DNA from: Candidatus Micrarchaeota archaeon
Lineage (GTDB): Archaea > Micrarchaeota > Micrarchaeia > Norongarragalinales > SBBD01
Reading direction: 5' to 3'
DNA length: 64,000 nt
Assembly: GCA_018819225.1 (NCBI GenBank)
Contig: JAHJQN010000003.1
Coordinates: forward strand, 160,001 to 224,000
Shown: positions 6,112 through 35,100 of the stretch, one piece after another
Layout: each line of letters opens with the position of its first letter
How positions within the stretch are numbered: the stretch's first letter is position 1
Position numbers and translations under genes: made by a program
Notes under the pieces: model-generated
What the model saw: the letters and a program-made list of their open reading frames with translations, nothing else
Databases searched by the model: none
What the model was told of the DNA's origin: nothing

Positions 6112-6173
6112 CCTGAAAAGGAAACGGATGAGGAGTTAAAAAACGCGAGGGATCGCTATGCAAAGCCCCACCA

Positions 6174-23227: not shown

Positions 23228-23562
23228 TCCTTTTTCACCTTTGAATCGTCGGGCCGTTCTTTTGCGTTCCACCAATAGAAAACCGCTTTTCCGCGTTTCT
23301 TGCGGATCACCCGGTTTTCATTGACGGCTCGGTCGAGACACCACTTGATTTTTCCGTATAAGGAGGGAATGCCTTTTCTCCACTGAGAAAACGGTTTTCC
23401 CAAAATCTCGTGTTCCTTGACCTCGAATCGCACGACCAGCAAGCCCATGAGCGTGTACGCGTTATGCGGATCGCTGCGCAACGTTTCCATCACCTTGTCG
23501 CAGACGCTCGTGCGCTCCAGTTCCTTCACCGGAAGCTTGATCGTGAGACTCAATACAAACAC
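23224..23562 (-). CDS. small winged-helix-like protein
   Basis: Helical pattern ending VIRKKRGKAVFYWW (wing); overlaps the PINA start. Confidence 0.6.
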   Translation of the reverse strand: MFVLSLTIKLPVKELERTSVCDKVMETLRSDPHNAYTLMGLLVVRFEVKEHEILGKPFSQWRKGIPSLYGKIKWCLDRAVNENRVIRKKRGKAVFYWWNAKERPDDSKVKKE

Positions 23563-23583
23563 CCTTCAATTACAATGTAATTA

Positions 23584-23629
23584 TTGTTAACCTTGTTAAT
23601 GTTAACAACATTTATAAGGTTATTGTTAA
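23584..23629. promoter_or_regulatory. TTGTTAA repeat cluster around a minus-strand TATA box
   Basis: TTGTTAA at 23584, 23593 and 23623; palindrome TGTTAACA at 23600; ATTTATAAG at 23610. Confidence 0.55.
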
Positions 23630-23632
23630 AGG

Positions 23633-24061
23633 TTAGTCGTCCTGAAGCTCGTCGTCAAAATACGTGGTAACGATGGCAGCCACTAAGAACAACAAGCCCA
23701 GTGCGAGCGGGGTATAATACTCGGGATTCAAGCCCTCGCCTTGCAGAAACAAATACGTGGCGCCTGCAAAGAAAAGGAAGGAGAGAACGTACAGAATGGG
23801 CTGGAGCGTCGCCCCAAACATGTCCACGTCATCCGGTATCTCGCCTTCGACCCACGAGGGCCAGATGATTTCCTGAATCAAATAGAAGGCTTCATAGTAA
23901 ACGTAATAGAGAACCGCAAACCCCGCTACCAATAAGATAACGAAACCCCAGTTCGCCGCAACAGGCAATAGTTTTTTCAGGATCGAGCGGACCGCTACGG
24001 CGAACGCTACGTATAACACGATGAAACCAAGGGGTTTGACGAAGTGCTCCCAATCCACCAT
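23633..24061 (-). CDS. hypothetical membrane protein (4 TM)
   Basis: Four hydrophobic segments. Confidence 0.7.
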   Translation of the reverse strand: MVDWEHFVKPLGFIVLYVAFAVAVRSILKKLLPVAANWGFVILLVAGFAVLYYVYYEAFYLIQEIIWPSWVEGEIPDDVDMFGATLQPILYVLSFLFFAGATYLFLQGEGLNPEYYTPLALGLLFLVAAIVTTYFDDELQDD

Positions 24062-24276
24062 AGTCTTATCCTGAAACTAAGCACGAAAAGACGCTATTAT
24101 AAGCTACCGACGCGCTGGAGAGCATGGAATTATGCAAATAGGATACAGCGATGAAAAGTTCCGTTTCAAAATAGAAATGGATGGGGTATGATGAAAGCCG
24201 CACGAATCCGACTGTTGATGCCGGCATTAGCCGGAGCACAGACTTACGCCGGAAGAAAAACCAGCGAATACTAGGC

Positions 24277-24822
24277 CTAACCTTGTTCCTTGAATCGCTT
24301 TAGGCAATCTGGAAGCTCCTTGTAGAGCCAAGCGCTGAATTCCGTGAACGCTTCCGTTTCGTTTTTGATGTATGCTTCGATAGACACATAGTCTTTTTTG
24401 GAGTACCAGAGTGGGACTTGACTGCCGTCTCCTGCTTTTTTGGTCAACTTATTAAGTCCAGAGCCTTTGAACTCGCCGTTATTCATAATTACTCCGCAAA
24501 CTCTCAAGTCAAGGAATGGTTTGTTTAGAATATCTACAGGATGCAGGCTATGGAGTGCGCATCGTTCTCTAAGGAAATTGTGCTCGAAACCCAGGTTATA
24601 GCCAACTGGAACAAACGTGAACGGGTAATCGTCAGTTATTCGAGAATCCTTCAGAAAGGTCTCTAAAATGGATTTCTCGGAAGACTTCCATTCCTTGAGT
24701 ATCTTCAGTTCGCCAATAGGCTTGCCCGTATTCCTATGAAGTTCTTGGTACTGGATAGTGATGATTTTGTCCTTCTTAGGATTCAAGCCAGTAGTCTCAA
24801 TATCTAGGTAAAAAGTCGGCAT
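24277..24822 (-). CDS. RNase H-like / DEDD-type exonuclease domain protein
   Basis: YLDIETTGL, VGYNLGFE, FLDL, YIKNE motifs. Confidence 0.8.
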   Translation of the reverse strand: MPTFYLDIETTGLNPKKDKIITIQYQELHRNTGKPIGELKILKEWKSSEKSILETFLKDSRITDDYPFTFVPVGYNLGFEHNFLRERCALHSLHPVDILNKPFLDLRVCGVIMNNGEFKGSGLNKLTKKAGDGSQVPLWYSKKDYVSIEAYIKNETEAFTEFSAWLYKELPDCLKRFKEQG

Positions 24823-24900
24823 ACCGTTCCCCTTAGCGAATTAGCATCCAAGCGTTAAAAATACGGTTGGAAGGAAGGCGTACAGCTCGTTTGAAAGACT

Positions 24901-24953
24901 TTTTTAGCAAGAATGCGAGTTTTTTAGCAGAAACCTAGTTCTTTAGCAAAGCC
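24901..24953. repeat. orphan IS903-type right end with three 20-nt-periodic TTTAGCA repeats
   Basis: TTTAGCA at 24903, 24923 and 24942; the last runs into GCAAAGCC (GGCTTTGC on the minus strand). Confidence 0.6.
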
Positions 24954-25027
24954 CAGCAAGAGCATATCAATATAAAACCCAAACTAGTTAGGTGTGTTGG
25001 TTGTACCCTTAGGTAGGATTGCTTCAA

Positions 25028-25234
25028 ATGGAGTCGCTTAGAACGCGGTTCTTGAAAACGTACGTATCAGTTCCCCTCAGTTATAGGGACGAAATTATCG
25101 CTATTGTTCAAATCAATGGGAAAGACCGCCCAGTATCGTGGGCTGCGGCGTACATAGAAGTACTCAATTCTACGCAACAGGGTAAGGAAATCCTTAAAAG
25201 AATGAACGAACTGAATTTACTAGGAGGTGATTAA
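25028..25234 (+). CDS. small hypothetical protein A (operon with protease-like gene)
   Basis: Clean ORF after a TATA-like ATATAAAA at ~24970. Confidence 0.7.
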   Translation: MESLRTRFLKTYVSVPLSYRDEIIAIVQINGKDRPVSWAAAYIEVLNSTQQGKEILKRMNELNLLGGD

Positions 25235-25235
25235 T

Positions 25236-25448
25236 ATGGCTGATGAGTACGCGAAAAAGTTAATCATCGAGCGCCTCAGAAATATGCCTCCAAATGTTTC
25301 AGTTTCTATAGGCGATAATGGGACATATAGCCGAAACGAGCTAATTGAACAAGTTCGAACGGGATCGGAAATTGGATTGGAAACAATCCATGTTGAGCTT
25401 GAGTTCATAAGACAATTACCACGCTTAGCAAAACGAGTGCAGGGTTAA
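25236..25448 (+). CDS. small hypothetical protein B, probable paralogue of A
   Basis: Strong SD GGAGGTGA; TAATG coupling to the next gene. Confidence 0.75.
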   Translation: MADEYAKKLIIERLRNMPPNVSVSIGDNGTYSRNELIEQVRTGSEIGLETIHVELEFIRQLPRLAKRVQG

Positions 25449-26086
25449 TGAAAACGTTTCTTATAACTCGGCCTAGGCATGACCCAGGCCTCCACATTCT
25501 TCATGCTTGGTCTGAAAACGTTATAACTGAAGCGATAGCGCATGGTTGGAACGTTCGCAAGGCAGATGATAAACATGCGAATAAAAAAGAAGTGCAGTCT
25601 CGATTAGCTAAAAAACCAGACTTCGTAATGTTCAACGGTCACGGCAGCGATGAATTAATTCAAGGACATAACAACGAGACGCTTGTCAACACCTCTTCGA
25701 GCAATCTTCTAAGGGGCACGATCGTATACGCACGAGCATGCAAATGCTTAAACCGCCTCGGAAGTGCGGCAATAAAAAATGACGGAAGAGCATTTATCGG
25801 CTACAAGGGAAAACTAATTGTTTGGAGCATAAATGAAGGTGCGGCTAAGCCCCTTCAGGATCCAGCAGTCGAGCCAGTGCTTACAGCTTCGAACCAAGTC
25901 CCTATAAGTATCCTTAAGGGAAATTCAGTTGAAGAAGCACTGAAAAAGTCAAAAAAGGTTGCTGAAAAAAAGATGCTTGAACTGCTTCAATCAAACGAAC
26001 CGTACAGCGCCCCTGCACTAAAGGGTTTGTTCAGTCACTATTTCTTGATTGACTTTGAAGGCGACTCTACCGCACGAGTATATTAA
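25448..26086 (+). CDS. putative clan CD (caspase/CHAT/gingipain-fold) cysteine protease
   Basis: FVMFNGHG (His65) followed by IVYARAC (Cys98) and AFIGY, the strand/dyad pattern of CHAT and C25 peptidases. Confidence 0.65.
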   Translation: MKTFLITRPRHDPGLHILHAWSENVITEAIAHGWNVRKADDKHANKKEVQSRLAKKPDFVMFNGHGSDELIQGHNNETLVNTSSSNLLRGTIVYARACKCLNRLGSAAIKNDGRAFIGYKGKLIVWSINEGAAKPLQDPAVEPVLTASNQVPISILKGNSVEEALKKSKKVAEKKMLELLQSNEPYSAPALKGLFSHYFLIDFEGDSTARVY

Positions 26087-26215
26087 ACGCGGCTCTATTT
26101 CGGGAATAGGTAGTAAGCCCACCGAATATAGAGTCAACCCCGCCAAGCCGCCCACCGTTACCAACCGTGCCCACCGAAGGAAACCTACCGCGGTTGGCCG
26201 TCTTGTTCGTCGAAA

Positions 26216-26274
26216 ACCGAATTTATGGTCAACCAATCGAATATGCGGGCAGAAGGTATTTTGTAGGCAAAGCC
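26216..26274. repeat. orphan IS903-type right end
   Basis: Ends in GCAAAGCC (26267-26274); degenerate direct repeat of 31843-31901. Confidence 0.6.
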
Positions 26275-26302
26275 CCCCTGTCCAGCCTTGCACCTTAAAT
26301 AG

Positions 26303-27520
26303 TCATTTTATGTGTAGGAGTGGCAATTTATGTGCAACGTCATTTAGGTCAATGGGAATCTTGTTCTCCTTAGCTTCGTGCACCAGAACGACCAAGTTGT
26401 GGCATAGAACTTTGGCTAAGGCCTCGTTGACCTGCGCCTGCTCGTTCCTGGAGAAGAGCCTGTTGTCGAACTTGCGTTTGAGCATGCTGAAGGTAGATTC
26501 GACGTTGCTTCGGCAGTGGTAGGCCTGCATGAATGCCTCGTTGTTGTATCTGAAGTAGTGGTACATCTTCCGCCAAGCCTGGCTAGAGAGCTTCTTGCCG
26601 GTGCTGTTGGATTTGAATGGGATGAATGGCACGACGCCCATATCCCATGCAGACTGGAGGTTCTTTCGAGAGCTATATCCTTTGTCGGCGACAACAGATT
26701 CTACGCGGAAGCCTTCAGTAGTCTCCTGGAGTAAATGCGGGAACTCCGGAGAATCACTCGAAGTTCCATCCGTGACGTTGATTGAGGTTACGATGTTTGT
26801 CTTTACCCCGCAGGCGATGTGAACCTTGATCCAATCCTTGACTCTCCGGTCTTGGTTAAAGCGGTAGTCAAACCAGCGGGAATAGAAAGCTGAAGAAAGG
26901 CCAGAGGCGTCGATGGCTATCGTATCTTCCAAACCAGCCAATGGCAAGGCTGAAATCCTAATCAAGGCTTTGAGAATCGGGGTTAGCTCGGGCTTGTTGA
27001 AGTACTTGAGAACGGTATTGAAATGGGGGGTCTTGCTCAAGTATCCTCTGCGTCTGGCGATTTCCAAGTCTGAATGAGCCCGTCTGGAAGAAAGACATTC
27101 GTATACCTTAGTAGTACAGGCAAAAAGCATTTCCCGAAGGTTTGAGGATGGTCTTCCCCGTTTGCAATCCCGCTTGTCAGGAACAAGCGAGGTAATATCC
27201 TCTAAAAATTCAAGGAAAAGGAGCTTTTCTTCAGTTTGAGCTGCATTGTAAGCAGGCCAGTCTTGAGGAAAAGTCGTGCGTTCGGGCGATGGCTCCTTTG
27301 ACTCAAAAAGCGTGTCCAACAACTCCTCTGGCGGGCTTTGAACGCCGACAAACGCGCCCAAGGTTTGTTTCGCAGCGATTCTCTCTTCAGGGGATATTGA
27401 GAATCTCCGTTTACATGACCCGCAATGATATGACTTGACTTTTCTTCCCCCATCAGACCAAACTCCGATTTGAATTGTCTTAATTGAACCGCAATACTTG
27501 CAGAATGGTGTTTCTTCCAC
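26303..27520 (-). CDS. DDE transposase, IS5 family (IS903-like) with N-terminal Zn ribbon
   Basis: CKYC...CGSC; DWPAYNAAQ; TPHFNT; IAIDASG; KVHIA; VVADKGY; YHCRSNVESTFSMLK (Y-R-E-K). Confidence 0.9.
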   Translation of the reverse strand: MEETPFCKYCGSIKTIQIGVWSDGGRKVKSYHCGSCKRRFSISPEERIAAKQTLGAFVGVQSPPEELLDTLFESKEPSPERTTFPQDWPAYNAAQTEEKLLFLEFLEDITSLVPDKRDCKRGRPSSNLREMLFACTTKVYECLSSRRAHSDLEIARRRGYLSKTPHFNTVLKYFNKPELTPILKALIRISALPLAGLEDTIAIDASGLSSAFYSRWFDYRFNQDRRVKDWIKVHIACGVKTNIVTSINVTDGTSSDSPEFPHLLQETTEGFRVESVVADKGYSSRKNLQSAWDMGVVPFIPFKSNSTGKKLSSQAWRKMYHYFRYNNEAFMQAYHCRSNVESTFSMLKRKFDNRLFSRNEQAQVNEALAKVLCHNLVVLVHEAKENKIPIDLNDVAHKLPLLHIK

Positions 27521-27599
27521 AATATCTACCCCACATAACTACATACCTATATTTGTAGGATAGATATATTTTTAAATAGATATCATCTCATGTAGATAC

Positions 27600-27758
27600 A
27601 TGGGCATAATGAACCAGAGAATTGATGACGAGCTGGACCAGCGCTTCAGGGAAGAGGTCGCCAAGAGGTATGGATGGAAGAAAGGGAACTTGAAGAAAGC
27701 GCTTGAAGAAGCTATTAATGCGTGGGTAGGCCAGAAAGAGAAAGCCATGAGAAAATAG
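27600..27758 (+). CDS. ribbon-helix-helix protein (52 aa)
   Basis: Manual translation MGIMNQRIDDELDQRFREEVAKRYGWKKGNLKKALEEAINAWV...; divergent from the transposase. Confidence 0.75.
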   Translation: MGIMNQRIDDELDQRFREEVAKRYGWKKGNLKKALEEAINAWVGQKEKAMRK

Positions 27759-29309
27759 TTACGACTTCTTGCGAAGAATCATTGTTAGATTATCCAATAA
27801 GTCAACGTCCCGCGTAATCTCGTCATACTTGGTTTTGAACTCTTCGACCGTAGATGCGGATTCTATCGCAATTAATACGGCTGTGGCCTTGAAAATATGA
27901 TAAACAAGGCCTGGAAGCCTCGCTTGGCTATGGGCAAACGCATATGAAGGATTAAGGGAATTAATGAGTAATACTTTTTTCCGTGAATCAAAAACAACCT
28001 CTGGCTCAAGCACGCTCAGTGGTTTTACTTCAATCTCAATTTTACCGCTTCTTATAAGCGTGGCTAGATTTGATTTTTGTTCATCCCTGCGAATAACGCT
28101 CTGCGAAGAAATCGTTATATCACGACGAGATGGTGTTCTTTGGGATTTTGCTGGACGAATTGGGTCGAGATGTGATGATGTTTGAAAAGCCTGGGTTACT
28201 CCAACGGGAATTGTCTTTGATATGAGTTCTTCCTTAACGCCTTCCCAGACAATATACTCTTTTTTCAACAAGGATACGATTCTTCGTTTTAACCACTCGA
28301 CAAATGCCATATAGGCCGGGTGGGTTAGGATGAACCCTGCCCGGTTCGTTTGGAGTGCATCGTTCAGGCCATCGGCATTTAAGGAGACGTGTATCTTGTT
28401 GTACAACATCCGAGGATGAGTGAAAGTCGCAAAATTTATTACTCCGGTAACGCTATCGACATTAACCAACCTGCCGTAAATTCTTATGTTGACGCCATAG
28501 CTCTTTGGCTCTTCTTTATTGAAAAAAACTATTTTTCCCGTTACTGGACCGACTTCGGGAACATCCTCGTCAATTGGATAGGTATTTCTTATCCTTCCGA
28601 CGATATCTTCCGGTTTTACTTCAATTTCCCCTTGAACACCAGTTCCGCTTAGTACTATCCTAAACCCATCAATCAATGGCATTGTCTTTACGAGGCGCCG
28701 TTTAACTGCGAGAACATCAATCCCCTTCAACGCGTCCTTGTTTAAGTCGAGAAGGGTTATTGTGGTTCCGCTACCGCTTTTATCGGTCTTTTCAGAAATA
28801 ACATGTAACTTGAACTTGTCGACGAACTCGGATTTATCAAACTCTTCAAAGTTGAAAGACGCAGATGAGACGATCCCATTCTTCCAGGTGGAAATGTTAA
28901 ATTTCTTGCAAACCTGATAGAGCGATATTTTTCCTATCCCAAATTTCCCAATGATATAGCGCTTAACACCTTTGAATGAACGAATTTTCCGGTTGTCTTT
29001 TTCAGTATGGGAAATGTAGAAGAAATGGACTAATCCATCCGGCGTCATTCCCTCGCCATCGTCTTCAATAGAAATCGTATCATCTTCAAGGCGAATCCGC
29101 ACTACGCTAGCCAGTGCATCACTTGCATTAGAAACTAACTCGTCAAAGATAATCAGAGGGTTCGGGTAAAACGTCGTACTTAGTTGTTTAATGATACGAG
29201 TCCCGACTCGGATATCGTGGTCTCCTTCTCCGATCCCGATGTTATTTTCGAAGTCGACGTTCACCCTTTTTCCAGGAACTGGCATAAGCTTTTTAACCCG
29301 AATTTCCAT
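27759..29309 (-). CDS. GHKL (MORC/HATPase_c_3-type) ATPase
   Basis: ELVSNASDA, IEDDGEGMT, IGKFGIGKIS and GTTITL Bergerat-fold motifs, followed by an S5-like region. Confidence 0.88.
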   Translation of the reverse strand: MEIRVKKLMPVPGKRVNVDFENNIGIGEGDHDIRVGTRIIKQLSTTFYPNPLIIFDELVSNASDALASVVRIRLEDDTISIEDDGEGMTPDGLVHFFYISHTEKDNRKIRSFKGVKRYIIGKFGIGKISLYQVCKKFNISTWKNGIVSSASFNFEEFDKSEFVDKFKLHVISEKTDKSGSGTTITLLDLNKDALKGIDVLAVKRRLVKTMPLIDGFRIVLSGTGVQGEIEVKPEDIVGRIRNTYPIDEDVPEVGPVTGKIVFFNKEEPKSYGVNIRIYGRLVNVDSVTGVINFATFTHPRMLYNKIHVSLNADGLNDALQTNRAGFILTHPAYMAFVEWLKRRIVSLLKKEYIVWEGVKEELISKTIPVGVTQAFQTSSHLDPIRPAKSQRTPSRRDITISSQSVIRRDEQKSNLATLIRSGKIEIEVKPLSVLEPEVVFDSRKKVLLINSLNPSYAFAHSQARLPGLVYHIFKATAVLIAIESASTVEEFKTKYDEITRDVDLLDNLTMILRKKS

Positions 29310-29320
29310 AGAATAGTAAA

Positions 29321-29514
29321 GGACGGTTGGGCCCTCTCAGCTCATTATCTGTTCATCGGGCCACGGAGCTGTTGCCGCTTCCTTTGGGGTTGCGGCGAAC
29401 CTACCGTGTTTCCCAATCCTCCCGCCCTTCGGTTCCCCGGTCGTTTGACAGCCCCGGGAAACATATCAACTCCACGAGTCTTCGTGAACCGCCCCAAAAA
29501 CCAGGAAAGCCTGG
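29321..29514 (-). other. GC-rich multi-hairpin element (candidate structured leader or ncRNA) upstream of the GHKL gene
   Basis: Several complementary stems closed by 29321-29328 / 29487-29494; TATA-like TATATAAG at ~29539. Confidence 0.45.
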
Positions 29515-29582
29515 CAATGCAGGAGTGCGCTTTTCAAGTATATAAGCTTATGGGTCGAATCCTGGCAAGCGACGAAGCAGTC

Positions 29583-30644
29583 TTAGCCGATTGCCGTAAA
29601 AATGGCCTTTCCGACAGCATTCATTAGGCGAGGAGGGACTGCGTTTCCGACTTGGGTGTATTGTGGGCAGCTTTCCTTGCGGTGTGGGCCACCAGTCGTC
29701 CGCGGTCCAAGGAATCGGAAGGAATCTGGGAATGACTGGAGTCTCGCCATCTCCCGTACCGAAAGGATTCTCGGTTGCGAGTAATGGATGAAATCATCTG
29801 GCAGCGTAGTCATCGTGGGGGCAGGCTGTGATCCATTCAGCCTTATCGTGTACAGTTTCTTTGTTCCTGCCCATGCATCAACCCCCCGCAGGGTTGCTCC
29901 TTCTTCCACCATCGAGAAACGCCTCTTTACCAAGGAGGAATGGTGGGAAGTCAGGTGGTTATGAAGTATCCGCTGGCCCTTACGCATAATTCGCTGGTAC
30001 TGGGTCCTCGCGGGGAATAGGTACTCGGTGGCTGACGAGCCTTGCTGCAAGAAGCTCAAATCGCTTATTGCTTCGCTCACGGTTACAGTATCGGATTCTG
30101 GAACCTTAAATTCAGCTAAGTCGATTTCAGCATCAAGAGCGCCCAGTAGAAAAAGTCTTTTTCGTCGCTGTGGTACGCCATGATTTGCCGCATCGAAGAC
30201 CCGCTCGGATACGGCGTATCCAGCCTTCTTCAGCCCCCGTCTGATTGATTCAACGAAAAAGCCATGGTCCATTGTCAGGAGGCCGGTAACGTTTTCAATA
30301 AGGATTAGCGGTGGCTTCAGTTCTCGCGCCAACCTGAGGACTTCCTTGAAGAGGTAGTTCCGAGTATCGTTGGAAGCTCGGCGACCGGCAGTCGAGAATC
30401 CCTGGCAAGGTAGACCAGCGAAGATGAGGTCAGGAACTTCCCCGGCGATAGATTTGATTTCCGAACCCGATAGTTTGCGGATATCTTTTTGGATCAGGGG
30501 GGTACTTGAGTGGTTTGAGGAGTAGGTCCACGCGGCTTGAGGATTCAACTCATTCGCAGCGATAACCCGGAAACCAGCTAGTCTTAAGCCTTCTGAGGCA
30601 CCACCTGCCCCCGCAAAAAGGTCAACTGCGGTAAGGTTACCCAT
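29583..30644 (-). CDS. dcm: C5-cytosine DNA methyltransferase
   Basis: DLFAGAGG, GLPCQGFS, IENVTG, PQRRKR, REMARLQSFPD, QVGNAVPP. Confidence 0.95.
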   Translation of the reverse strand: MGNLTAVDLFAGAGGASEGLRLAGFRVIAANELNPQAAWTYSSNHSSTPLIQKDIRKLSGSEIKSIAGEVPDLIFAGLPCQGFSTAGRRASNDTRNYLFKEVLRLARELKPPLILIENVTGLLTMDHGFFVESIRRGLKKAGYAVSERVFDAANHGVPQRRKRLFLLGALDAEIDLAEFKVPESDTVTVSEAISDLSFLQQGSSATEYLFPARTQYQRIMRKGQRILHNHLTSHHSSLVKRRFSMVEEGATLRGVDAWAGTKKLYTIRLNGSQPAPTMTTLPDDFIHYSQPRILSVREMARLQSFPDSFRFLGPRTTGGPHRKESCPQYTQVGNAVPPRLMNAVGKAIFTAIG

Positions 30645-30833
30645 GCGAACGAGGCCTCTTGTATTTTTTCCACTTAGAAAACGCAAGGATAAGATCCTTA
30701 ATAGCCTTCTCCTTACTAGGTGCGCCCGCATCTGCCTTGAACCGCGAAACGATCCAATTCTCCTCCTCCGAGAGGGAGACATTAATCCCGGGCATAAATC
30801 CCACTACTAATTATAACAAAATGATATATATAG

Positions 30834-31250
30834 TCATAATTTATAATACCTCGTATTCAAAGCCCGGCTTATCTTCTTCAATGATTTCAGGGGAGTTGCA
30901 GTTATCTCGTGCTCCCAGATGCGAATTACTCGCCAACCCATTTTCCTTAAGGCCAACCGTTGCTTCTTATCCCTGCGTATATTCACCTCTAGCTTGTTTC
31001 TCCAGAAGGACGAAAGCGCCTTACGTCGTTGCAGGTAGTGCCAGCCGTGCCAGAAATCACCGTCAATGAACACCGCTAGCCTCTTGGCTTTGATAACAAT
31101 GTCGGGATGTCCAGGGAGCTCGGAGTAGATTGAGAACTTAATCCCGGACGAACGCAACAGTTTCCGCATTACCTTCTCTGGTTTTGTATGCTTGCCCTTG
31201 ATACTAGACATTATCCTACTGCGCGTCCGTCGGTCGAAAATATCGACCAT
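30834..31250 (-). CDS. vsr: very short patch repair endonuclease
   Basis: RSRIMSSIKGKHTKPE, LPGHPDI, FIDGDFWHG, GWRVIRIWEHE. Confidence 0.95.
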   Translation of the reverse strand: MVDIFDRRTRSRIMSSIKGKHTKPEKVMRKLLRSSGIKFSIYSELPGHPDIVIKAKRLAVFIDGDFWHGWHYLQRRKALSSFWRNKLEVNIRRDKKQRLALRKMGWRVIRIWEHEITATPLKSLKKISRALNTRYYKL

Positions 31251-31324
31251 GAACGCTAGAAGTGGTTTGGCTTAATTAAACCGGTTGAAAATCCTTTTAA
31301 GTAGGTCGCGTGCGTACACCTAGT

Positions 31325-31804
31325 ATGCGAGTAAAAACCTATTTGCGCAAGGGAGCGGGTAATAAGAAATTCGTTACAATCGTTAAGACGATAACCGATG
31401 CACTTGGTAATATTGACGGTTCAACCCGAATCAAGGAGGCGCTTCTTGAGGAACTTACAAAAAACAGGTCCAACCTTGGTGCTGCATGGCAAGACGGGGA
31501 CCAGTTATTGAACATCCTTGGCAAGAATTCAGACCACCGCTTCGATATCTATAATTGGGAGACTAAGACCGCTATCGAGGTTGAGGAAAGTGAAGTCAAG
31601 TACGTTTGTAAGGACTTTGTCAAATTGGCGATTGGTGCAAGGCGCGGGCGGGTTGCCAACGCAATGCTAGTTTGCCCAATTGCATATGGGGGCAAGACAC
31701 TCAAGCGACCGGTGGCGATATATACAAATGCCGTATCAATTTCGCACTTCATGTCCGACTTCTTATGGATGAAGAATCTAGCCATAATCGGCTATGAGAA
31801 GTAG
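31325..31804 (+). CDS. putative type II restriction endonuclease (BamHI/BglII/BstYI-like)
   Basis: RFDIY...AIEVE...KDFVK resembles the D...ExE active site; adjacent to vsr and dcm. Confidence 0.55.
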   Translation: MRVKTYLRKGAGNKKFVTIVKTITDALGNIDGSTRIKEALLEELTKNRSNLGAAWQDGDQLLNILGKNSDHRFDIYNWETKTAIEVEESEVKYVCKDFVKLAIGARRGRVANAMLVCPIAYGGKTLKRPVAIYTNAVSISHFMSDFLWMKNLAIIGYEK

Positions 31805-32106
31805 ACTCATAACCACTCCAAGCGCCCCGGCTACCCTCACTACCCGATTTTGTGTGCAGCCCATCGATTAAATGTGCAACAGCCAGTATATGTGCAAAGC
31901 CCCCCCTCCCCAAAGATTTAAATACTTGTAACTGTACAGTAGTAACACGTTCCGGTGTAATAGTGTGTGGATGGCTAGCAAATTCCGCCAGCAGGAGGAC
32001 GCTCGCCATTGAAAGTGGAAAGAAAATAGGTTGAACGGTCGGCCATGGTTTGCGCAAGGGCTGAAACATGCAGATGCCGGAATGAAACCAGTGAAGCGCG
32101 CATAAC

Positions 32107-35100
32107 ATGAAGCGCGGAAAAAAAGGCGATGAAATGAATTACGAGTCGCTCAAAAAGCGTTTGACCCGAAACAGAAAAAAAATACTCGCTTCCGCAACCT
32201 TGAGGCTATTCGTTACCCTCGCGATACTGGCCGTTATTGCCGGTAACGTAAACGCGTATTGCGGCGACATGTATTGCGATCCTTACTACGAAAACCAGTT
32301 TACGTGCGCGTACGATTGCGCCGGCATCTTTTTCGATCCGACTCCCCTTCCTCCTTACGGCGGGCAATATAATGGGGGAGGCGCGCTTTGCGAAGTGTAC
32401 GCATACGATGGTTATCAAGGCGAAAGCGTTCCAGTCGATGTATACTATTACGGATGGGATTACCCTGGAAGCATTCTCGTGGATTGTGGTAACGGGCGAA
32501 CCGCCACCGCGTACTTCATGTGGGGAAGCTACGTGGCGCATACCTCGTGCTATTACGATTTAGGTGGGGCGTATTACGTAGACGCGTACTCGGGAGGGTT
32601 ATACTGCCCGGGAAACACGGTTTACATTCACGATGATTACCAAGATTACGGGTATTGTGGGGACGGGGTTTGCGACACGTACGAATGGAATGGCGGAACG
32701 TGCGCGTACGATTGCGGAAACGGAGGGGATAACGATTACTCGTATTGTGGAGACGGGGTTTGCGACTGGGGAGAAAACGAGTTAAACTGCGCGGAGGATT
32801 GCGAGCCCGAAGTACCCGTCGAGCCGTCATGCGGATTGACCGCGAGCCCGGGGCGCATAACCGAAGGCTACTGGAGCGTGATGACCGCGCGTTATTATGA
32901 CATGGAGCAGGCGCCGAACGTAATTAGCGTTGATTGCGGTAACGGAGAAAGCGCTACGGCAACGGGATGTAGCCGCACCACGGGAAGTTGCACGGCATCA
33001 TGTTATTATCCCAATGCACGCGGCGAAGCGTACCACCCGCAAGCGAATATCGGCGGAACAAGTTGTTCACCGGCAAGCGTTTATGTTGATGAACCGTACG
33101 TACCGATTTACTGCAGCTCGAACGCGGATTGCCCCGATGACGGATACGTGGGACTCGCGTATTGTTTGAACGGAAACGCGGTTAAGGACTATATTGATTA
33201 TACGTGCGTGAAGCCCGGAGAAGCCGGGAACGCGTGCGAACATGCGAGAGCACCGCAAGTGATCGAAGAGTGCGCAAACGGATGCTCGTACGGATCGTGC
33301 AACGAAGCACCCGCGGAAGCCAGTTGCCATATTGCGACGCATCCGAGCACCATTGACGAAGGACAAGGAAGCGTGGTCACGGTTTACTACCAGGACTTGG
33401 CGCAGGCACCGAATTACGTTTCATTGAATTGCGGCAACGGGGAAGTGAAAAACGTTCCCGGATGCAGCGGAACCCGAGGCAGTTGTACGAGCACGTGTTA
33501 TTACTCGAGTGCAGGAAGGTATGAAGTGCAGGCGAGTGCGAGCGGCGTCTCGTGCGCGCAAGGAAACATTATTGTCAATGAGCAACAGCACCTGCCTTCC
33601 AGCTATTACGGGGACGGAACGTATTGGTTGATGGTAGGGGACCAGGCGTACGGTAACAATAACTACGGAGTTGAATTAACGAACGTGCAAGCGAATCCGC
33701 ATGCGCAGTTCAACGTACTGAATCCGTACGGGCAAGTCATCGGAAGCATTTCGTTACCCGCGTTTTCCGGGCAAGAGATCCCGTACGCAGGAAACTTGCG
33801 GGTAAGCGTCGAAGCAGTTGATGCGCACCAGAACAGCGCAGTCGTTACATTGCAGAGTCCGGGAGTACCGACTCCTTCGGCGACGCCGCAACCGGATCCA
33901 GAATGCGCTTTAAGCGCCGTGCCTTCGCACGTGCAGGAAGGAAGCTCGAGCTCGATAATAATCAATTACTACAACTTGAATCATGCGCCGTACGTCGTGC
34001 CCGTTGACTGCGGGAATGGCCGGCAGGCCAATGCATTGAATTGCTTGGGAACAACGGGAAGCTGTGCGGCATCGTGTTTCTATCCCGGGGAAGGAAGCTT
34101 TACCGCAGTAGCCATTGCGGATGGAACGGCGTGCAGCACAACGAGCGTGGAAGTCAGCAACGTGCCCGTGCCTACGTGCAACGACGGCACGCGTTACGGA
34201 GAGTGTTCAACGAACCAGCCCTTTTATTGCGATGACGGGTTCTTGGTGAAGGATGCGCAGGTCTGCGGTTGTCCAGTCGGACAGGAACCGGAAGGAAACC
34301 GGTGCGTGGACTCGATGGGGTATTGTTCCACGAGCGTGAACCCGTACCCGGTTCGAGCCAACGAGCCCATGCAAGTACTGATCCGTTACAATGAATTCCC
34401 GGAAATGCCGAACAACGTGCGCGTGGTTTGCGGGAACGGAAGAGTCGTGCAGGGAAGCTGCGCGGGAACGGAAACCAGTGGAACGTGTACGGCGCAATGC
34501 ACGTACGAAGAACAAGCGGGCTACCCGCAAACGTATACCGTTGATTCGATTTTGGATGGCGTGCGTTGTGAAAGCGCCCAAGCAAAAGTAACCGCACCCT
34601 CGGATACCACGGGAACGCTTCTCGTGAAAGCCACGGATTGCGGTACGGGAGCGGCGCTGCAGAGCGCGACGGTTAGCATCAGCGGACACGGCGACGAGTT
34701 TACGGATGGTTACGGGCAAGTGCAAGTGGAACTCGATCCTGGACAGTACCAGATCATTGTTGATAAGGAGGATTACGCGGGAACCCAAGTCAGTAAACGG
34801 ATCGAATTAGGGAAAGTGAGCACCGCGTTCGTATGTCTTGAGAAAGAAGATGCGTGCGAAATCAAGGCGACGCTGGTGAGCTCTCCGAATATCGGGGACA
34901 GCCGAACGCCGTTACAGTACGAGATTCGCGTGGACAACGAAGACGAAACCGACAGCGCGACCATTATTACTCGGGCGTCCTCGAGCTTTACACTGAATGT
35001 TCAACCCTCGAGCTTCACGATCCCGGCTGGTGCAGCGCAACTGGTGAGCGTGCAAGCGTACCCGCCAGTAGACTTCACGGGCAATTCCGTTGGCATCGTC

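Follow-up and report, generated by a model that had tools for sequence, protein, structure and literature searches.

A probable pile-up of cargo-carrying IS903-group transposons upstream of core promoters in a Micrarchaeota genome

A simple insertion sequence (IS) is about 1 kb long and consists of a single transposase open reading frame (ORF) without passenger genes, and the transporter IS (tIS), a concept of ISfinder, designates an IS-type element that encloses passenger genes between its inverted repeats. The choice of an insertion site can be remarkably regular, as for Ty3, which is directed to RNA polymerase III promoters by TFIIIB, a factor that includes TBP. IS1202-family elements keep to one orientation and a constant distance when they insert beside dif/pdif (PMC10132070), and the target preference of IS903, as given in Table 1 of PMC2577343 (citing Hu and Derbyshire 1998 and 2001), is WTTYA-N9-TRAAW, including the flanks of the duplication. 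Here we describe an island of transposon ends and defence genes, at about 24.1–31.9 kb of a 64,000-nt stretch (hereafter the window; contig JAHJQN010000003.1, positions 160,001 to 224,000) of a 1.37-Mb Micrarchaeota assembly (GCA_018819225.1). The island comprises a complete cargo-carrying element (unit 3) and two solo ends (those of units 1 and 2), and no paper describing this transposon group or its targeting was found in the open literature searched.

The Micrarchaeota, among the DPANN archaea, have tiny genomes, and little is known of how such archaea gain and shuffle defence genes. The island is read here as a pile-up of archaeal cargo-carrying IS903-group transposons anchored upstream of core promoters, with a probability that we put at about 0.78. 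This reading provides a simple and testable rule for the location of defence islands in these genomes. It also gives a natural range of states within a family, one promoter being empty, bearing a solo end, full or stacked depending on the genome, and a candidate system for asking if an archaeal transposase is guided by TBP/TFB; kilobase-scale insertion at a predictable promoter-side spot could also make a practical insertion tool. A first-pass annotation had been made from the letters of the window; new here are the proposed stacking mechanism, the series of states at one promoter, and a subfamily-specific box architecture common to the three ends.

Ends, relatives and the complete element

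The first-pass annotation reported the 8-mer GCAAAGCC at 24946, 26267 and 31894, each time on the + strand and as the last of three boxes spaced 18–20 nt apart, which the sequence bears out. The 8-mer by itself is not enriched (4 copies, including a further unrelated one at 6160, vs 2.9 expected; at least 4 in 35/100 shuffles). The boxes are TTTAGCA at 24903, 24923 and 24942 (site 1), GGTCA at 26227, GGGCA at 26247 and AGGCA at 26265 (site 2), and TGTGCA at 31853, 31873 and 31891 (site 3), the final box overlapping GCAAAGCC. When aligned with the transposase-distal ends of two complete elements (on contig C5 of the same genome, and at locus L044) and with two solo ends of related genera, the three sites form a single architecture (GGCTTTGC-xx-ATAAA, three times), with three co-oriented boxes of 10 nt (TGCxxATAAA) recurring at a 19–20-nt period. 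The box sequence is subfamily-specific (TGCAC, TGCCC or TGCTA), presumably matched to the DNA-binding domain of each subfamily's transposase, and the sites of the window belong to three different subfamilies: site 2 aligns with the distal end of the C5 element, and the TGCTA type of site 1 also occurs at the ends of a 40%-identity transposase subfamily (L061/G193, L058). Such a motif is not common at unrelated promoters, a strict regular expression for the triple-box architecture matching only sites 1 and 3 in the entire genome, with 0 matches in 5 shuffles.

A search for inverted repeats inside the window returned no clear pair, and its ends were recognised because they were compared with a paralogue. 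The genome holds four transposase paralogues, the closest of which (61% identity) belongs to the C5 element, 3,786 bp long, in which both the 13-bp inverted repeats (GGCTTTGCCTCTA) and the 9-bp duplication (TTCTCTTGA) are perfect. A single-protein locus search of genome contigs gave 9 loci, hence relatives were sought by a phylum-wide whole-genome search with long flanks, elements being defined by an inverted repeat plus a 9-bp duplication. Six further relatives (4.5–7.8 kb) were delimited in this way, with a perfect duplication in five and a single mismatch in one, so that among the seven relatives (3.8–7.8 kb) six duplications are perfect. Their termini read GGCTTTGC or AGCCTTGC inward, and the ends are asymmetric, as the transposase lies at the proximal end in all seven and the three co-oriented boxes at the distal end. 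The flanks of the transposase homologues, with their GGCTTTG-type ends, GGCTTTGC inverted repeats, perfect 9-bp duplications, stacking and variable cargo, thus uphold the earlier identification of the motifs as IS903-type ends. No ends were defined by the same search for the C8 and C2 copies of the genome itself, no distal end was present within the flanking DNA examined at L047 and L048, and no tRNA genes adjoin the ends of the relatives.

Beyond the proximal ends of L047, L048 and L050 (G056, G077 and G103, of different families), TTTATATA is followed by repeated TCATGAC/GTCATGA boxes, and this shared neighbour points to either another promoter that is targeted repeatedly or a mobile module lying alongside.

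In the window, AGCCTTGCAC begins at 26284, exactly 9 nt beyond the site-2 end, as the first-pass annotation had noticed. This terminus matches the opposite one (GGCTTTGCAC) at 8/10 positions, and the pair of end types, proximal AGCCTTGCACCTTAA and distal GGCTTTGCACATATAC, is common to L006, L007 and L044, relatives with perfect duplications. Since its end types equal theirs, unit 3 is a complete member of the group, and the former delimitation of a complete unit at 26284–31901 stands.

An empty counterpart of this insertion is found in other genomes. The genes flanking the island are only 1–3 kb apart in genomes of the same family, and in G018, which belongs to a different genus, the homologue of site 2, at the orthologous place, is 80.6% identical over 124 nt including the boxes (window 26150–26274 vs L067 5125–5248). 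There, 15 nt after the site-2 homologue, comes the promoter and leader (TTTAAATACTTGTAACTGT..AGTAGTAACAC) that in the window follows site 3, and in the window, too, the distance from GCAAAGCC to the TATA box comes to 15 nt once unit 3 and one 9-mer are subtracted. G018 therefore displays the empty site for unit 3, with the site-2 end already in place. The promoter in question is that of a giant surface-protein gene, conserved together with its leader in G018, G131, G141 and the genome of L006, and its occupancy varies: no end motif in G141 (thus neither a site-2 nor a site-3 end), a solo TGCAC-type end 15 nt off in G131, a solo TGCCC-type end in G018, a solo end plus a full element in the window, and an older solo end joined by a complete, transposase-bearing element in the genome of L006. 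According to this series, the giant-gene promoter was struck several times independently; the intergenic alignment of G131 and G141 is too diverged for sizing the solo remnant of G131. The first-pass claim of repeated insertion at one site and in one orientation is thereby retained in so far as unit 3 lies beside a pre-existing co-oriented end and stacking recurs elsewhere (L007, L006, G402); its "one site" affinity gives way to promoter targeting, and unit 1 sits at a different promoter.

The leader of the giant gene is about 180 nt long (31925–32106), and its first 30 nt (CTTGTAACTGT.TAGTAGTAACA) are conserved across genera (L067 5264–5295, L068 3322–3352), with no Rfam family. The site-2 stretch is 80.6% identical between genera though the neighbouring proteins are 52–63% identical, and may have been co-opted upstream of the giant-gene promoter or reflect recent independent insertions; a motif, GCCCACCG, is repeated both within 26150–26274 and in the G018 counterpart (L067 5125–5248).

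A target beside core promoters

Outward from the distal end of nearly every element come first the 9-bp duplication, then six T-rich bases, and finally a TATA box. Twenty distal ends were compiled from genome elements, solo ends and 8 metagenome ends, for which metagenome contigs were scanned with the end sequence alone to avoid circularity and the 8 matches with inner boxes were kept. A TATA-like hexamer occupies the register -25..-15 at 16/20 of these ends vs 1.06% background (binomial P ~1e-28), and at 1/8 of the proximal flanks; at L005 and L050, where the distal end has no TATA box and the proximal flank is readable, an AT-rich stretch or a TATA box is present on the proximal side instead. 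On the opposite strand, a purine-rich hexamer followed by TTTAAATA or TATATAAA corresponds to an archaeal promoter, with its TFB-recognition element (BRE) and TATA box, directed away from the element. At L044, for example, the ATG of a 346-aa ORF, also directed away from the element, lies 38 nt past the TATA box (an automated check of the first ORF beside the ends was informative only on inspection by eye). The register at site 1 (9 nt, 6 nt, TATA) equals the targets of complete elements; this site follows the rule at a different promoter, that of the operon starting at 25019, and the island therefore represents two promoter-anchored events and not one point struck thrice.

From these sequence comparisons, the following mechanism of stacking is proposed. 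The target would be the 9 bp directly upstream of a core promoter (9 bp, about 6 nt resembling a BRE, TATA box), and the distal end would usually settle toward the promoter, which would stay intact and directed away from the element. Because the target would be fixed by the promoter, a second element arriving there would re-use the same 9 bp, landing in the gap that separates the promoter from the resident distal end. The expected product is an old end, 9 nt, a new element (proximal then distal end), 9 nt and the BRE/TATA, all units being co-oriented with the newest closest to the promoter, so that re-insertion at the same promoter would yield the common orientation, the order of the units and a spacing of precisely 9 nt. 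In the window, a TGCCC-type element would have arrived first at the giant-gene promoter, about 125 nt of its distal end being recognisable now, and the TGCAC-type element at 26284–31901, with its restriction-modification module, would have inserted afterwards. A TGCTA-type element would have inserted at the promoter of the 25019 operon, with its distal end and an exonuclease gene left.

What would the transposase recognise in such a target? The recognised feature would be a promoter landmark, whether sequence, shape or bound TBP/TFB. That the enzyme reads TBP/TFB assembled on the BRE/TATA, or the resulting DNA bend, and not the DNA sequence, is a tentative suggestion that we regard as possible, though doubtful.

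In L007 and G402, too, a gap of exactly 9 nt separates a new proximal end from an old distal one. An end-N9-end pattern has 13 matches in 12/401 genomes (0 for a reversed-pattern control), and about 8 further genomes of Micrarchaeota have such junctions complete with subterminal boxes. These junctions, together with the 9-nt spacing in the window, L007 and G402, would be expected if it were the older end, for example with transposase bound to it, that attracted insertion into the adjacent 9 bp, the promoter being incidental. However, single elements without a nearby old end stand in the same TATA register (L044, L045, L046, L051 and the metagenome ends), and at L006 the new element lies 78 nt away from the old end but keeps the 15-nt distance to the TATA box exactly, which indicates that the promoter, rather than the old end, determines the position. 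Old and new box subfamilies can also differ (TGCCC vs TGCAC in the window), so that cross-recognition of the old end by the new transposase is unexpected. Attraction by the resident end is consequently an unlikely explanation.

It is harder still to believe that the 24.1–31.9 kb island was acquired in one step, in the form of one integrative element, composite or site-specific, with the direct repeats GCAAAGCCCCCC at 26267 and 31894 as its borders. Sites 2 and 3 do share these 12-nt repeats followed by C-rich sequence, the 9-mers flanking unit 3 are imperfect, and the entire island is AT-richer than its flanks (42–51% vs 52–56% G+C, as first reported); but G018 has site 2 without unit 3, no integrase or recombinase domain was found in any ORF between 24277 and 31804 (Pfam, NCBIfam), unit 3 has inverted termini and end types as in relatives with perfect 9-bp duplications, and the three ends represent three different box subfamilies. 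Least credible of all is the idea that the triple boxes with GCAAAGCC are transcription-factor operator arrays merely resembling transposon ends. In its favour, every motif lies 15–16 nt upstream of a TATA-like box, and the 80.6% conservation of the site-2 region, against 52–63% for the flanking proteins, is suggestive of constraint or exaptation. Against it, elements with inverted partners and perfect duplications end in this very architecture, the giant-gene promoter of G141 has no motif and the motif type at this promoter varies by genus, and elsewhere in the genome the strict architecture is absent. Readings as a site-specific integrase element, an integron or a Tn7-like element were rejected, their defining features being absent.

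Several observations weigh against promoter-anchored stacking itself. The expected 9-bp duplication, which the first-pass annotation had named for IS903 and which the relatives display, is poorly preserved around unit 3, whose flanks (CCCCTGTCC vs CCCCCTCCC) agree at only 6/9 positions; this may reflect an old insertion, an unstable C-run, or arrival or exchange by recombination. Without the filter on subterminal boxes, the 9-nt gap (5 matches) is only modestly over-represented among gaps of 7–30 nt, and a junction search with variable gaps is dominated by gaps of 0–6 nt (hairpins) and by a repeated unit with a 24-nt gap, for which reason the argument from N9 spacing is limited to junctions with subterminal boxes. 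Four of the 20 distal ends share one orthologous promoter and are not independent, and survivorship could add to the bias toward promoters, insertions that break genes or promoters being lost. A transposase subfamily of 38–45% identity is laid out differently, with methyltransferase genes directly after the transposase, and the search for inverted repeats with 9-bp duplications defined no ends for it. As to units 1 and 2 and the left border of the island, no left ends were found, nor transposase or cargo remnants known from the relatives. Their solo ends would have arisen by deletion of the transposase-proximal parts, and the earlier statement that the older units lost their transposase is accordingly reduced to a supposition. 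Finally, no IS903-type ends surround the homologues (L211–L214) of the three-gene operon between sites 1 and 2, and the first-pass listing of this small-small-protease operon as a transposon unit accordingly stays putative.

Cargo, remnants and neighbouring sequences

The gene content of the island is as first listed, judging by Pfam, PADLOC and NCBIfam, and an Atlas model supports, as a lead, the 164-aa endonuclease candidate (Table 1). The transposase of unit 3 matches Pfam DDE_Tnp_1 (PF01609) at 1.7e-21 over profile positions 4–200 of 200, and its best NCBIfam model is the IS5-family NF033579, aligned end-to-end at 122.5 bits, below the 140-bit cut-off. It shares about 25% identity with IS5-family enzymes of bacteria, and has more than 4,000 homologues, many of them in Micrarchaeota, one being labelled "IS5 family IS903 group" at source. 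Homologues of the ribbon-helix-helix (RHH) protein adjoin the transposase in L044, L046, L110, L123 and L026/L194; its gene is a conserved core partner of the transposase, with a presumed role as regulator.

Table 1. Position and strand of the ends, targets and genes of the island in the window
Feature	Position	Strand	Evidence
181-aa RNase H-fold / DEDDh-like exonuclease gene, sole gene of unit 1	24277..24822	-	Pfam RNase_H_2 7e-8; PADLOC DEDDh 2e-7
Site 1: TGCTA-type solo end, transposase-distal, with three TTTAGCA boxes and GCAAAGCC at its end	24894..24953	+	sequence, alignment, pattern scan
Site-1 target: 9 nt CAGCAAGAG, 6 nt CATATC and TATA-like box AATATAAA (promoter of the 25019 operon)	24954..24976	+	
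Three-gene operon (71, 73 and 212 aa; 212-aa protein with His/Cys dyad)	25019..26086	+	
Site 2, solo distal end, TGCCC-box subfamily (end proper ~26215-26274), with ~65 nt of conserved interior	26150..26274	+	
9-nt spacer CCCCTGTCC, left copy of the unit 3 target duplication	26275..26283	.	
Complete cargo transposon (unit 3), 5,618 bp	26284..31901	-	end types; absence from the orthologous site of G018 and G141
Transposase-proximal end: terminal AGCCTTGCACC and two inner TGCACA/TACACA boxes overlapping the 3' end of the transposase gene	26284..26340	+	
405-aa DDE transposase, extra N-terminal Cys-rich (Zn-ribbon-like) region of ~85 aa	26303..27520	-	
52-aa RHH protein, divergent from the transposase gene	27600..27758	+	Pfam RHH_6 1e-3, below cut-off
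516-aa GHKL ATPase	27759..29309	-	Pfam HATPase_c_3 8e-17; PADLOC REase_II 6e-10
C5-cytosine DNA methyltransferase, Dcm type	29583..30644	-	Pfam DNA_methylase 2e-67; PADLOC MTase_II 8e-98
Vsr very-short-patch repair endonuclease	30834..31250	-	Pfam Vsr 2e-23; PADLOC Vsr 3e-21
164-aa protein, BglII/BamHI-like endonuclease fold (lead only)	31310..31804	+	ESM Atlas match, TM 0.74, BglII-domain clusters
Site 3, distal end of unit 3 (TGTGCA x3, GCAAAGCC at end)	31845..31901	+	
Right 9-bp target copy CCCCCTCCC, BRE-like CAAAGA and, at 31917, the TATA box TTTAAATA of the giant surface-protein gene, which starts at 32107	31902..31924	+	

The cargo of unit 3 is a predicted Type II restriction-modification module with Vsr, in which the sequence matches leave the methyltransferase and Vsr as firm assignments. 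Two proteins are candidate endonucleases: the GHKL protein, whose N-terminus resembles the BbrUII/HgiDII family of restriction enzymes (NCBIfam NF050001, 9e-23, below cut-off), and the 164-aa protein with its modelled BglII-like fold, for which Pfam, PADLOC and NCBIfam returned no HMM match. Passenger genes are present in 8/8 close relatives examined, amounting to 3–8 further genes and 2.5–6.5 kb of variable cargo. They encode Eco47II or AccI endonucleases, Dcm, N6 and N4 methyltransferases and Vsr, as well as a MORC-type GHKL ATPase and Schlafen/AlbA_2, SocA antitoxin domain, DprA, radical-SAM and T5orf172 proteins, and the cargo of the group thus consists mostly of restriction-modification or defence genes.

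The exonuclease of unit 1 is 55% identical to the product of a gene that, at L044, has an equal position and orientation beside the distal end of a complete element, and 39% identical to that of an L012 gene 4 kb from the transposase. By sequence comparison it is a recurrent accessory gene of these transposons, and the L044 counterpart supports unit 1 as the remnant of a similar element. For the proteins of the three-gene operon, Pfam, PADLOC and NCBIfam gave no match; homologous three-gene modules lie near AbiEii and MazE genes in other Micrarchaeota contigs (L211–L214).

The 71- and 73-aa proteins of this operon are paralogous, the module is conserved at L211 1813–2886 and L212 1194–2250, and its AbiEii/MazE neighbours correspond to a defence-island context. 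In unit 3, a GC-rich non-coding gap of 270 nt (29310–29582) separates the GHKL and Dcm genes, without any Rfam match; the Rfam scan covered 23500–32600 and gave none anywhere in it.

Other sequences resembling these ends occur outside the window. On the same contig, another distal-type end (GGCTTTGCTAACAAAGTC) at G000:C1:265183, about 3 kb from the contig end, is preceded by TATTTAAA, 6 nt and 9 nt. A 38-nt motif (AAGCCTCCGG.G.G.CTCG.CCAAAAGGTGCAAAGCCC) is found three times in the same genome (G000 C2:334245, C2:334836 and C7:35535); read inward, it starts with GGGCTTTGCACC as transposon ends do, and no TATA register or partner end was seen beside it. A 40-nt palindromic unit (GCAAAGCTTGCCAAATAGTCGTGAAACATGCAAGCTTTGC), bearing the same outward-facing termini, is present four times in G147 (C1:164968, C2:26079, C13:28452 and C17:143478), with a variant in G315 (C13:5491 and C46:13069), and may represent either a miniature element or two ends abutting across a 24-nt spacer.

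Comparison with known systems

Among described systems, Tn7-like elements share with this group asymmetric ends with multiple subterminal boxes, and site choice. They differ in their machinery, as there is here a single DDE_Tnp_1 transposase, and no AAA+ regulator, TnsA or TnsD homologue was found (Pfam). The comparison with integrons, made in the first-pass annotation, remains apt as a topological analogy, since units accrete in order and co-oriented at one fixed point, the newest closest to the anchor. It fails beyond topology: the island has no tyrosine recombinase, attI or attC, the borders of its units are transposon ends, and the units bring their own transposase and promoters, whereas the anchoring promoter is directed away and the cargo is not expressed from it.

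Closer in their targeting are two elements that insert by reference to a landmark. Ty3 likewise lies in a fixed register beside a core promoter and leaves the gene functional, and is a possible precedent for guidance by transcription factors; it is a eukaryotic LTR retroelement with an integrase, and guidance by TBP/TFB is a hypothesis for the group described here. If true, it would give archaeal DDE transposons a counterpart of Ty3/TFIIIB targeting, and strong promoters would represent "safe harbours" for ordered, co-oriented stacks of defence genes, whose leftover ends may be co-opted upstream. The IS1202 family is like the group in that its insertions keep one orientation and a set distance to the site where a host DNA-binding protein binds. 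It differs in having another transposase family, in using a XerC site as landmark instead of a BRE/TATA, and in consisting of simple IS without cargo.

The IS903 group has in common with the elements described here the DDE_Tnp_1 transposase, the GGCTTTG termini and the 9-bp duplications. Unlike simple IS, however, the group elements are 3.8–7.8 kb long and carry cargo (5,618 bp for unit 3), which places them outside that definition, and they add the N-terminal Cys-rich domain of about 85 aa, the RHH partner gene and the asymmetric three-box ends. Their target is also one-sided, with a TATA box 6 nt past the duplication. The 6 nt on the distal side of the duplication are T-rich (YYTTTY; cctttt, tctttg, gctttt), like one half of the preference tabulated for IS903, and the other flank has no TRAAW; the T-rich hexamer may be a relic of one IS903 target half-site. 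The resemblance to tIS lies in the enclosure of genes unrelated to transposition by inverted repeats and a target duplication, with one IS-family transposase, and the difference in that cargo is here the rule (8/8), mostly restriction-modification or defence genes, and anchored at promoters. The most suitable classification for the elements is as an archaeal branch of the IS903 group (IS5 family), tIS-like in carrying cargo and with promoter-proximal targeting.

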